From a phage, in sequence record PZ379075.1: DNA of 64,000 nucleotides. One strand, given 5' to 3'. Below the pieces are notes generated by a model, which worked only from the letters and a program-made list of their open reading frames with translations, was not told the DNA's origin and ran no database searches. Numbering within the stretch: the stretch's first letter is position 1; each line of letters starts with the position of its first letter. The position numbers and the translations under genes are program-made. Below are positions 8,072 through 10,133 of the stretch, piece by piece.

Positions 8072-8150
8072 TCAATGGGTGCCTCTGATAAAGGGGCACA
8101 ATTTAAAGGTTAATTAGATGAAAGGGTTTACCCTTCAGGTGGATTAGAAA

Positions 8151-10133
8151 ATTTGTGGCATCGTATTAGCTGGCGGTAATCTGTCAAGCACTGATTTAGA
8201 CGTATTTAACCAACTCTTTTATGCTGGAGTATTCCGAGGACAACATTCCTCCGGTATCTTTGGTCAGCGTAAAAGTACTAAGGAAGTCTTCACTTATAAA
8301 GAAGCTCTTCCTTCTTTCGCATTCATCCTACAAGATGAGTACAAGAAGCACACCACTGGTGAAACAGCTTACACTGTAGCACCTTCATGGATTGTTGGTC
8401 ACAGTCGTCATGCAACGAAAGGTGCAGTTAACGCCAAGAACGCCCATCCTTTCCAACATGGTAACATCACTCTGGTTCATAATGGAACCTTGATGGACCA
8501 AGACCTGTTACCTGACAGTAAAAACTTCGAGGTAGATAGTGAGAACATCTGCCACTCTATTAACACTATTGGTGCAGCAGAGACTATTCAAAAGCTGGAT
8601 GGTGCTTTCACCTTAATCTGGCATGATGCTTCTGATAACCGCCTTCATATCATTCGTAACGAAGAGCGTCCTTTCCATCTCGCACGTTGTAACAGAGATT
8701 GGTTTGGCGCTTCTGAAGAAGATATGCTGATGTGGATTCTGAAGCGTTCGAAGTCTCACAAGAACCGTATTGATGAGCATTTTGAGTGTAAAGTTGGTAC
8801 AGAGTATATCTTTGACATGTCTAATAACAGCATGACACTGGTTGAAGAGGTCGCCCACGAGCTTCCGGTTTTTACGGTAGTCAATCGTTGGGGCAATTAC
8901 TACTCGAACAATTACAGCCAAAGCAACTATCAAAGTTCCTCAAAAAGCAGTACAAGCAATCCTTACGACACGAAGCCGGGTGTGACAGCGGCAGACGTTC
9001 GTCGAAGAAACGCAGTGGTAAGTCAAAACAAAATCGCAAGCGATCGAAACATTGATATTCGCCGCGATATGACTGTGGAAATCACTCCGCATGAGTTTGT
9101 TCCTTATGCAACTGCCGGTGCTGTTCCTTCTCGTGGTAAGATGATTGGTTATATCTACGATGAGAAATCTCAAGAGTATATCGAAGGTGATGTTCATAAC
9201 GTAGACATTAAGGCTTATCAGGATGCCCTGAAAGACCCTAAAATTGTTTACCGTGGGACAGTATCCTGCATCTCCGAAGTCAATGCTATGGTCCGTTTAG
9301 TGATCACAGCAGGTCGTTTTGTTGACCCATCTCTGGAGAAAAAGGAGCCTGAGTCAACTACTGCTGACTTCGATGATGATATCCCTTTTGATATGAATGA
9401 TAGTTTCGTCAACAAGAATGGTGTTACTATCACTCGTAAATTCTGGGAAGCGCACTCTCATGGTGATTGTGGTGGTTGTGATAAGCACATTGATTGGAAG
9501 GATGCACCTAAAGCAGTCTTCGCATATCAGTGCTATTGGCATCCTGAATGTCTGGAAGGTTTGACTAAACCTAAAGAGGAAGAAGAGGAGGAAACTCCTA
9601 TTGGTGTTTGTGAAATCTGCGGTGAAGTTAAAACAGAGAATGAGTTCGATGATGAACTTAGTCGTCTTCGTGGTGAAGATATCTGTAAAGTCTGCGCTGT
9701 AGAAGTAAAGAAGAAAGTGTCTAATGCTACGATCAAAGATGGTTATGTCTGGATTAAAGCAACAGATACAACAAACGCCCGTCGTCCTGAATTCGCTTTA
9801 CGTGTAACTGAAGATATGATCGGTCGTATGACTGTATTACCTTCCTCAGCGAAACAGACAGGCATCACTCTGGAGGATGTTGTTGATGCTTATGTTGAGA
9901 AACGTAGCAACAGTATTTTTGCAATCTCAACTAAGCCAAAAAGGAGGAACCTGCTGAGAAAGCAGGTGTGTTTCCTGAATCACGAACAGCTCTCCGCAAA
10001 ACTGTCGTCAGCTTCGACGGAAACCGAAGCACTGACTTCACCAAAGCAATGTGGTCAACCCTCGGATACTGCTCAGAGTGTTTTAAGCAGATTCCGTGGC
10101 GCGATGCTGAAAGTTGTACGCTTGGTTCTATGA
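8151..10133 (+). CDS. class II (Ntn-type) glutamine amidotransferase-like protein with C-terminal Cys-rich zinc-ribbon region; apparent AUU start
   Basis: The frame is open from 8148; the ORF track starts it only at TTG 8490. The upstream part encodes (I)CGIVLAGGN ... HSRHATKGAVNAKNAHPFQHGNITLVHNGTL, matching the MCGIVG N-terminal nucleophile and H.R..T.G...QP...HNG motifs of class II amidotransferases. No ATG precedes the Cys; ATT at 8151 sits 8 nt after a strong AGGTGGA Shine-Dalgarno (8136-8142). C-terminal part has CGGCDKH...CYWHPEC...CEICGE...CKVC clusters. Confidence 0.55.
   Translation: MCGIVLAGGNLSSTDLDVFNQLFYAGVFRGQHSSGIFGQRKSTKEVFTYKEALPSFAFILQDEYKKHTTGETAYTVAPSWIVGHSRHATKGAVNAKNAHPFQHGNITLVHNGTLMDQDLLPDSKNFEVDSENICHSINTIGAAETIQKLDGAFTLIWHDASDNRLHIIRNEERPFHLARCNRDWFGASEEDMLMWILKRSKSHKNRIDEHFECKVGTEYIFDMSNNSMTLVEEVAHELPVFTVVNRWGNYYSNNYSQSNYQSSSKSSTSNPYDTKPGVTAADVRRRNAVVSQNKIASDRNIDIRRDMTVEITPHEFVPYATAGAVPSRGKMIGYIYDEKSQEYIEGDVHNVDIKAYQDALKDPKIVYRGTVSCISEVNAMVRLVITAGRFVDPSLEKKEPESTTADFDDDIPFDMNDSFVNKNGVTITRKFWEAHSHGDCGGCDKHIDWKDAPKAVFAYQCYWHPECLEGLTKPKEEEEEETPIGVCEICGEVKTENEFDDELSRLRGEDICKVCAVEVKKKVSNATIKDGYVWIKATDTTNARRPEFALRVTEDMIGRMTVLPSSAKQTGITLEDVVDAYVEKRSNSIFAISTKPKRRNLLRKQVCFLNHEQLSAKLSSASTETEALTSPKQCGQPSDTAQSVLSRFRGAMLKVVRLVL

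Follow-up and report, generated by a model that had tools for sequence, protein, structure and literature searches.

A probable AUU initiation codon behind an invariant leader at the amidotransferase gene of Kuravirus phages, and its possible origin in HNH endonuclease insertion

The amidotransferase gene and its start region

The stretch of DNA analyzed in this study (hereafter the window; 64,000 nucleotides (nt) of sequence record PZ379075.1) belongs to a phiEco32-like podophage of the genus Kuravirus, and between 7900 and 10200 it is 98-100% identical to Shigella phage ShigP1, ES17, phiEco32, SU10 and about 70 other phages. The gene considered here is, judged by its sequence, a homologue of the class-II glutamine amidotransferases, which are N-terminal nucleophile (Ntn) enzymes with an N-terminal Cys, and of phiEco32 gp83. 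Its AUU codon at 8151, directly ahead of the Cys codon, is very probably a genuine but weak initiation codon that depends on a Shine-Dalgarno (SD) sequence. The locus comprises the following features, in which ORF stands for open reading frame and CDS for coding sequence.

8137-8143, plus strand: SD sequence AGGTGGA, separated from ATT by 7 nt (8144-8150)
8145-8147, plus strand: in-frame TAG, 3 nt 5' of ATT and followed by AAA (8148-8150), by direct reading
8151-8153, plus strand: ATT, the predicted initiation codon (read as formyl-methionine, fMet), homologous to the ATG of relatives and the CDS start in the phiEco32, SU10 and Bas86 records
8154-8156, plus strand: TGT, Cys1, the predicted catalytic nucleophile after Met removal, within an invariant C1-G2
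8118-8147, plus strand: mini-ORF of nine codons (MKGFTLQVD*), in frame with the amidotransferase, from ATG 8118-8120 to TAG 8145-8147
8122-8135, plus strand: palindromic small hairpin, AAGGG-TTTA-CCCTT, immediately ahead of the SD; the palindrome is perfect in phage BUCT695 (AAGGGTTAACCCTT)
8101-8158, plus strand: invariant leader and translation-initiation block, from exact-run, synonymous-site and GenBank comparisons
8079-8099, plus strand: 8-bp stem-loop just past the amidoligase stop (GUGCCUCU / AGGGGCAC), in both the minimum free energy (MFE) and centroid folds
8151-10133, plus strand: amidotransferase-like CDS as read in the window, its 3' end frameshifted; relatives extend to the equivalent of 10181
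9938-9942, plus strand: run of five A, six in phiEco32, ShigP1 and SU10, from alignment and compared translations
6968-8071, plus strand: amidoligase (Amidoligase_2), the upstream gene and partner enzyme of the amidotransferase (Pfam PF12224, E = 4.5e-8)

An earlier reading made from the letters of this DNA (the sequence-only reading) had claimed that no ATG, GTG or TTG precedes the Cys codon in frame, that the TAG at 8145-8147 lies in that frame, and that a nine-codon ORF runs in the same frame from ATG 8118 to this TAG; direct reading agrees. The AGGTGGA it had described is likewise present, although at 8137-8143 instead of 8136-8142 and with a spacing of 7 nt instead of 8, and its duplex with the 16S 3' end has an energy of -7.2 kcal/mol. 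The mini-ORF possibly has a weak SD of its own, AAAGG at 8105-8109, 8 nt upstream of its ATG. The TGT at 8154 continues GGC ATC GTA TTA GCT GGC GGT AAT (CGIVLAGGN), and only 79 nt lie between the amidoligase stop and ATT. The catalytic domain had been said to be lost in automatic ORF calling, and indeed the program-made ORF list opens this frame at TTG 8490, and in GenBank the ShigP1 CDS is annotated from the position corresponding to 8493; both starts drop 113 codons, Cys1 included.

Comparison with homologues places the start codon directly before the Cys codon. In a comparison of 64 distinct loci drawn from IMG/VR and metagenomes, together with five further GenBank phages, the codon in this position is mostly ATG, in a few cases GTG, in one TTG, or else ATT; the homologues with ATG (rarely GTG or TTG) are at 28-64% identity, and the CDS starts annotated in the five GenBank phages fall exactly on this codon. 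The sequence-only reading had proposed an AUU start and had named homologues starting elsewhere as a possible refutation; instead, the start codon adjoins Cys throughout the family, and ATT occupies that position behind an SD. An alignment of the junction in related phages, suggested there as a check, gives the same result. With a 58-nt query (8101-8158), 97 of 99 phage records were 100% identical, ATT included; when ATT in the query was changed to ATG, no record matched exactly and those 97 stood at 98.3% (one mismatch). In addition, codons 1-113 have a ratio of non-synonymous to synonymous change (dN/dS) of about 0.07 compared to a clade with approximately 70% synonymous-site difference, and these codons are therefore translated.

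SD strength is also distinctive, with a median SD-anti-SD pairing energy of -9.45 kcal/mol in lineages with ATT and -6.0 kcal/mol in the others (p = 3e-4); the corresponding value for E. coli infC is -9.3. The SU10 homologue has been found by mass spectrometry (9 peptides) among the early gene products (PMC4281155). We infer that AUU is actually used, that expression is low, and that initiation is sensitive to initiation factor 3 (IF3).

Several other accounts of the start region were rejected. A sequencing error at ATT is ruled out by the same ATT in 97 independent genomes. No tRNA or suppressor gene is encoded in the window, which speaks against a suppressor tRNA or recoding, and a -1 frameshift on A AAU UUG (8149-8155) fails on a check by hand since the resulting frame is not that of the Cys. 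Initiation at UUG 8153 or GUG 8155 would be out of frame and yield peptides of 8 and 4 codons, respectively.

The ATT start itself is already known at the annotation level, as ATT is the CDS start in the GenBank records of phiEco32 (EU330206, phi32_83, 2008), SU10 (SU10_085) and the BASEL phage Bas86. A literature search found no paper discussing this start, the phiEco32 genome paper (Savalia 2008) being outside its reach. Four records have the CDS annotated from a downstream ATG, with the catalytic Cys lost (PQ818763, ShigP1; NC_070977, BUCT695; KJ936628, VPp1; OX241572, 275E43-1); the true start in each is likely the ATT directly before TGT.

The MCGIV-type amidotransferase N-terminus recognized in the sequence-only reading is borne out by profile comparisons. 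The protein scores above the Pfam cut-offs for GATase_6 (55.4 bits, cut-off 27) and GATase_7 (27.8 bits, cut-off 25), and a profile built from eight homologues matches the GFAT1, GlmS and PurF chains from position 1, with Cys1 aligned to their residue 1 or 2. Invariant positions (alignment A3) are C1, G2, R28-G29, R85, N110-G111 and D128, of which the last four sites are, as we assume from the profile alignment and general knowledge of GlmS and PurF, the GlmS glutamine-site residues (Arg-Gly ~26, Arg ~73, Asn-Gly ~98, Asp ~123). With GlmS/GFAT, PurF and AsnB the phage protein has in common the Cys right after the initiator Met, the conserved Arg-Gly, Arg, Asn-Gly and Asp, and the GATase_6/GATase_7 match, but the likeness is confined to a glutaminase domain of about 200 residues; its C-terminal 430 residues, which are Cys-rich, gave no synthase domain match. 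Also unlike those enzymes, the phage gene clusters with amidoligase and ATP-grasp genes. The upstream gene is labelled amidoligase in the phiEco32 RefSeq, SU10 and Bas86 records, and the order amidoligase, amidotransferase and, further downstream, ATP-grasp enzyme is a conserved phage cluster, for which PMC10580990 (citing Iyer 2009) gives a conjectural role. At the 3' end of the amidotransferase, the one base fewer at 9938-9942 shifts the frame to a stop at 10133 instead of 10181 and turns the Cys-rich C-terminal ~80 residues into unrelated sequence; this may reflect a sequencing error in the homopolymer or a gene that is truly truncated in the isolate.

The conserved leader upstream of ATT

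The segment from 8101 or 8103 to 8158 is the longest exact run (56-58 nt) within 4.7 kb when the window is compared to two Kuravirus clades with a DNA identity of only about 70%. The leader has 0-1 differences in 53 nt, compared to differences at 70-77% of the adjacent synonymous sites. In Aeromonas phage BUCT695 (Grimontviridae), whose protein is approximately 50% identical, the leader is 91% identical over 57 nt and keeps the mini-ORF, the palindrome, TAG, AAA and ATT; its mini-ORF reads MKGLTLQAD*, both differences from Kuravirus being non-synonymous, and the upstream AAAGG is lost. As the leader is invariant across deeply diverged clades, selection must now be maintaining it.

Other lineages with ATT have hairpins analogous to the palindrome at the same position, of unrelated sequence. 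The pairing of the 8079-8099 stem-loop is preserved in the ECBP2-like clade, where T>C is accompanied by A>G and one C and one G are lost together (alignment A2). This stem-loop is terminator-like without a proper U tract and may act in RNA stability or as a weak terminator; it accounts for most of the folding score of the 141-nt context (z = -1.77).

No Rfam family came near threshold in 7950-8350, and the leader holds no plus-strand sigma-70 promoter, no match by eye to the phiEco32 gp36 promoter consensus tAATGTAtA (PMC8948821), and no entry of the SU10 promoter list at its position. Within the 64 kb there is a single copy each of the leader's 5' part, the palindrome and the SD-ATT block; a repeated regulatory motif is thus ruled out.

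Three further observations concern the sequence around the leader. A direct repeat, ATTAGA at 8113-8118 and 8143-8148, encloses a 24-nt segment holding the palindrome and SD; relatives with ATG (e.g., locus L022: TTTAAATGTAAATTAGAGGATGTATTAAATG) have a single ATTAGA, and the segment with palindrome and SD is absent, an arrangement that looks like an insertion footprint. On the minus strand, 8187-8160 resembles a sigma-70 promoter (TTGACA-16-TACGAT, 10 of 12 matches) from which an antisense RNA would start near ATT and run through the leader; it is probably fortuitous, as its -35 element is not kept in the ECBP2-like clade. Lastly, a 12-codon ORF at 8075-8113 (MGASDKGAQFKG) begins 3 nt past the amidoligase stop (TAATCAATG…) and resembles the native TAATCAAATG start context of locus L059; either chance or the remains of an earlier start could account for it.

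ATT alleles and HNH endonucleases across the gene family

The gene is present in 328 GenBank phages. ATT is found in at least ten of about 52 lineages, namely Kuravirus, BUCT695, L103/L108, L055, L058, L045, L042, L088 and the Vibrio phages VPp1 and 275E43-1. Lineages were counted on a crude neighbour-joining distance tree of approximately 200 residues, to which the GenBank cases were added, with dereplication by hand; most of the homologous loci (those with L numbers here) are metagenomic contigs, and the metagenome scan yielded 20 loci. A short-pattern scan of IMG/VR returned mostly chance matches in coding DNA, L088 being the one genuine new lineage. The non-canonical codon is always ATT, never ATA or ATC, and an SD lies about 6-8 nt upstream in every case. 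Between the nearest in-frame stop and Cys there is no canonical codon in L042, L045, L055, VPp1 and 275E43-1, while L058 has in-frame TTG codons, none with its own SD. Nearly the same initiation block is common to several lineages: (C)AGGNGGATTAGAAA-ATT-TGTGG in Kuravirus, BUCT695, L088, L103 and L108, the last three with the same GATTAGAAAATT as the TAG region of the window; GGAGGATTATAAAATT in L058; and GGAGGATAGTNNTATT in L045 and 275E43-1. In most lineages with ATT, the SD is immediately preceded by a small hairpin, unrelated in sequence, the median energy of the best hairpin being -5.3 kcal/mol versus -2.25 kcal/mol (p = 0.003). An apparent 860-nt ORF-free stretch upstream in the marine loci proved to be an artefact of the ORF filter, as the amidoligase overlaps the start there.

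Three comparisons of sibling loci with near-identical coding sequence (L058/L059, L055/L051, and L103 and L108/L105; proportion of synonymous differences, pS, 0.03-0.19, with a non-synonymous to synonymous ratio, pN/pS, of 0.05-0.2) show homology breaking exactly at the start codon. In the siblings with ATG, the amidoligase stop lies 2-10 nt upstream; in those with ATT, an HNH endonuclease gene lies in between (Pfam HNH_3; PHROG HNH, E = 5.6e-64; one HNH family T7 gp7.7-like). The junctions fall after ATGTGT, ATGTGTGG, ATGTG and ATG, and the cassettes are inserted 2-8 nt past the native ATG. L058 keeps the native ribosome-binding site with ATGTGT, followed by TGA, a TTGACA-17-TATAAT promoter, the HNH gene, a hairpin, TTGGAGGA, TTATAAA and ATT|TGTGGCATC. 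L055 keeps ATGTGTGG, followed by TAG; promoter and HNH gene are arranged as in L058, with …CCTAAAATT|TGTGGAATC after them. In both L108 and L103, the HNH ORF begins at the native ATG and the amidotransferase restarts at GCAGGAGGATTAGAAAATT|TGTGG.

The cassettes of L055 (1009-1037) and L058 (884-912) were seen to carry a perfect sigma-70 consensus (TTGACA, 17 nt, TATAAT) right after the stranded native ATG, and no promoter was found in those of L103 and L108. L108 (~430) and L103 (~90) also hold two different HNH genes in near-identical backgrounds, each on the native ribosome-binding site and ATG of the amidotransferase, which suggests endonuclease turnover at one site with the ATT right end staying in place.

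An HNH gene also lies directly upstream of ATT in VPp1 and 275E43-1, and BUCT695 has a decayed HNH remnant beside the same leader, in which an N-terminal HNH-like motif remains together with a helix-turn-helix (HTH) fragment of 43 aa. Searches by tblastn with four HNH proteins matched at loci with ATT only. By lineage, six with ATT have an endonuclease and four do not, compared to one with and 41 without among the remainder (Fisher p = 6.7e-5), absence at loci with ATG being judged from ORF inventories and tblastn with the four queries. In the window, the 79-nt gap at the amidotransferase start site contains no endonuclease ORF. Three aspects of these results look new: the invariance of the leader amid saturated neighbouring synonymous sites, the recurrence of ATT in the gene family, each time behind a strong SD, and its association with HNH cassettes.

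Elsewhere in the window, a 170-aa ORF on the minus strand (53760-54272) has an HNH motif (…HKNGIKDDNRIENLEW…) and an HTH-like C-terminal tail, shows weak similarity to the HNH proteins upstream of ATT alleles (tblastn E = 0.001-0.004), and appears to be a free-standing endonuclease among late genes.

Initiation, origin and alternative explanations

Under the proposed mechanism, the 30S subunit would bind the GGUGGA SD 7 nt upstream of AUU 8151, the initiator tRNA would decode AUU as fMet, and deformylase and methionine aminopeptidase would expose Cys1 as the Ntn nucleophile. The weak AUU, discriminated against by IF3, would result in a low enzyme level from an abundant early polycistronic mRNA, and the amidotransferase is probably made sparingly. 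The hairpin, the SD, the A-rich spacer with its in-frame UAG, and AUU would all be kept invariant because each element matters to the weak start.

The E. coli thrS-infC junction is alike in its AUU start, in a GGAGGA-type SD located 7 nt upstream and inside the upstream reading frame, in the limit that a weak start would set on output, and in an in-frame stop one triplet before AUU (infC TTGGAGGAATAAGGTATT, phage GGTGGATTAGAAAATT; phage GGNGGA-T-TAG-AAA-ATT versus GGAGGA-A-TAA-GGT-ATT). However, the AUU of infC serves IF3 autoregulation, whereas nothing ties the phage enzyme to IF3; the phage upstream frame is a putative nine-codon ORF and not a full gene, and the phage GGUGGA carries a central mismatch. 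E. coli pcnB, a gene that is not homologous, resembles the phage case as proposed in that an inefficient AUU start limits the expression of an enzyme (PMC3592434 ref. 6; bioRxiv 10.1101/063800). In E. coli, AUU is the sole non-canonical start to have been confirmed, with infC and pcnB as the two genes, and its output was approximately 1-2% of that of AUG in a reporter study (bioRxiv 10.1101/063800) and 6-8-fold below AUG in another report (PMC3592434).

As for the origin of the start, HNH cassettes would insert 2-8 nt past the native ATG and restart the gene with their own SD and ATT. The use of ATT instead of ATG probably avoids remaking the endonuclease target (…ATG TGT GGN AT…), which an ATG would restore from the start codon on because the downstream codons are unchanged in occupied alleles. 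The Kuravirus leader (hairpin, SD, TAG, ATT) would then be the scar of a cassette's right end from which the endonuclease gene has since been deleted. From the sequence comparisons, that this leader is a retained homing-endonuclease scar or immunity allele seems nearly an even call. The wider proposal, that ATG TGT GGN AT… is a recurrent HNH homing site, that the cassettes capture or strand the native ribosome-binding site and ATG and restart the gene with a hairpin-SD-AUU module of their own, that the invariant AUU leader is an endonuclease-immune scar, and that selfish-element conflict, not regulation, both creates and maintains the non-canonical start, is put forward more tentatively.

There are two potential explanations in which the codon is a true start but the weight lies elsewhere. 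ATT could be kept purely for dosage or regulation (a low or IF3-responsive output of a potentially wasteful glutaminase), with the endonuclease link incidental, for example as compensation for strong cassette promoters. In its favour, the leader stays unchanged among Kuravirus clades that lack an endonuclease gene and whose synonymous sites have diverged to saturation, consensus TTGACA-17-TATAAT promoters are present in the L055 and L058 cassettes, and the lineages concerned all use ATT to the exclusion of ATA and ATC; nevertheless, near-identical siblings work with ATG and an ordinary SD, which means that low dosage is no general requirement of the enzyme, and no promoter was found in the L103 and L108 cassettes; this explanation is possible but rather doubtful. 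Alternatively, most of the enzyme could come from coupled re-initiation, a kind of arrangement that the sequence-only reading had also raised, in which the mini-ORF at 8118-8147 is translated, the hairpin is melted, and ribosomes stop at UAG and restart 3 nt on at AUU. This geometry of stop, 3 nt and AUU is the same as at thrS-infC, where about equal shares come from re-initiation and from initiation de novo (PMC3592434). AAAGG lies 8 nt upstream of the mini-ORF, whose ATG and stop are preserved in BUCT695, and similar arrangements occur in L103, where a 163-aa HNH ORF ends at the same TAG, and L055, where the upstream ORF stops 1 nt before ATT. However, the BUCT695 mini-ORF lacks any SD and differs from that of Kuravirus by two non-synonymous changes and no others, and in L045, L042, L088, L058, VPp1 and 275E43-1 no ORF ends within a few nt of ATT, the gaps being about 13-55 nt. 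Re-initiation as the main route is unlikely, but the mini-ORF may, by analogy with thrS-infC, add a re-initiation component.

Two further explanations deny AUU its role as the start. Ntn amidotransferases with propeptides are established, and that of B. subtilis PurF is removed; the mini-ORF, being in frame and conserved, could accordingly be imagined to start the protein at ATG 8118, with TAG 8145 read through and a 12-residue propeptide autocatalytically removed by the Ntn domain. Not only does the window encode no tRNA or suppressor, but the rest of the family always starts directly at Met-Cys, and L045, L055, L042, VPp1 and 275E43-1 have no in-frame upstream ATG, hence read-through of TAG cannot be a general mechanism and is most improbable here. 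It is equally hard to credit that the catalytic domain is dead, the real product starting at the internal ATG 8493 or TTG 8490 and ATT being part of a decaying 5' end. The ORF list and many GenBank records do start at 8490/8493, and the SU10 table gives about 64 kDa (PMC4281155), but dN/dS is 0.07 over the 113 "lost" codons (45/67 and 48/73 differing codons being synonymous), Cys1, Gly2, Arg28-Gly29, Arg85, Asn110-Gly111 and Asp128 are invariant, and no convincing SD precedes 8490/8493.

It is also important to note the points that weigh against initiation at AUU and an endonuclease origin as proposed here. The GGUGGA of Kuravirus and GGCGGA of BUCT695 are the weakest SDs among the lineages with ATT, and the SU10 proteomics value is nearer the truncated model than the 677-aa protein while being silent on the N-terminus (PMC4281155). 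The leader folds no better than shuffled sequences (MFE z = 0.29), and the invariance of its 5' half is not accounted for. With regard to origin, four lineages with ATT, Kuravirus included, have no endonuclease gene, and ATG is retained in UFV-P2 despite an upstream HNH gene. The BUCT695 remnant is located 5' of a motif (TTTAAATGT) common to relatives with ATG, so that the insertion point there differs. Additionally, the lineages entering the comparison were dereplicated by hand.

The cassettes can be compared with free-standing phage homing endonucleases (T4 seg/mob, T7 gp7.7-like HNH), whose homing, co-conversion and marker exclusion are the subject of a review (PMC2988022). As in those systems, endonuclease genes (the T7 gp7.7-like family plus two other types of HNH) are located between conserved genes, with presence/absence polymorphism between near-identical flanks, here in the relatives and not in the window. 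Unlike them, insertion falls within the target gene itself, in its first codons, and the cassette brings a replacement SD and a non-AUG start, for which no description was found in the literature; furthermore, the window has no endonuclease gene at this site.

Most automatic annotations of the amidotransferase gene are truncated, with loss of the catalytic Cys (e.g., ShigP1, BUCT695, VPp1 and 275E43-1). The gene is a third, phage-borne candidate for AUU initiation beside infC and pcnB (bioRxiv 10.1101/063800), expressed in the same host, E. coli. Approximately 100 sequenced phages keep its infC-like initiation region, which would make it easy to study with them how weak starts are used, and how IF3 discriminates, in infected cells. 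If the link to endonucleases is true, it would provide a concrete, testable evolutionary route to non-canonical start codons, together with a natural set of endonuclease/target pairs centred on a start codon.

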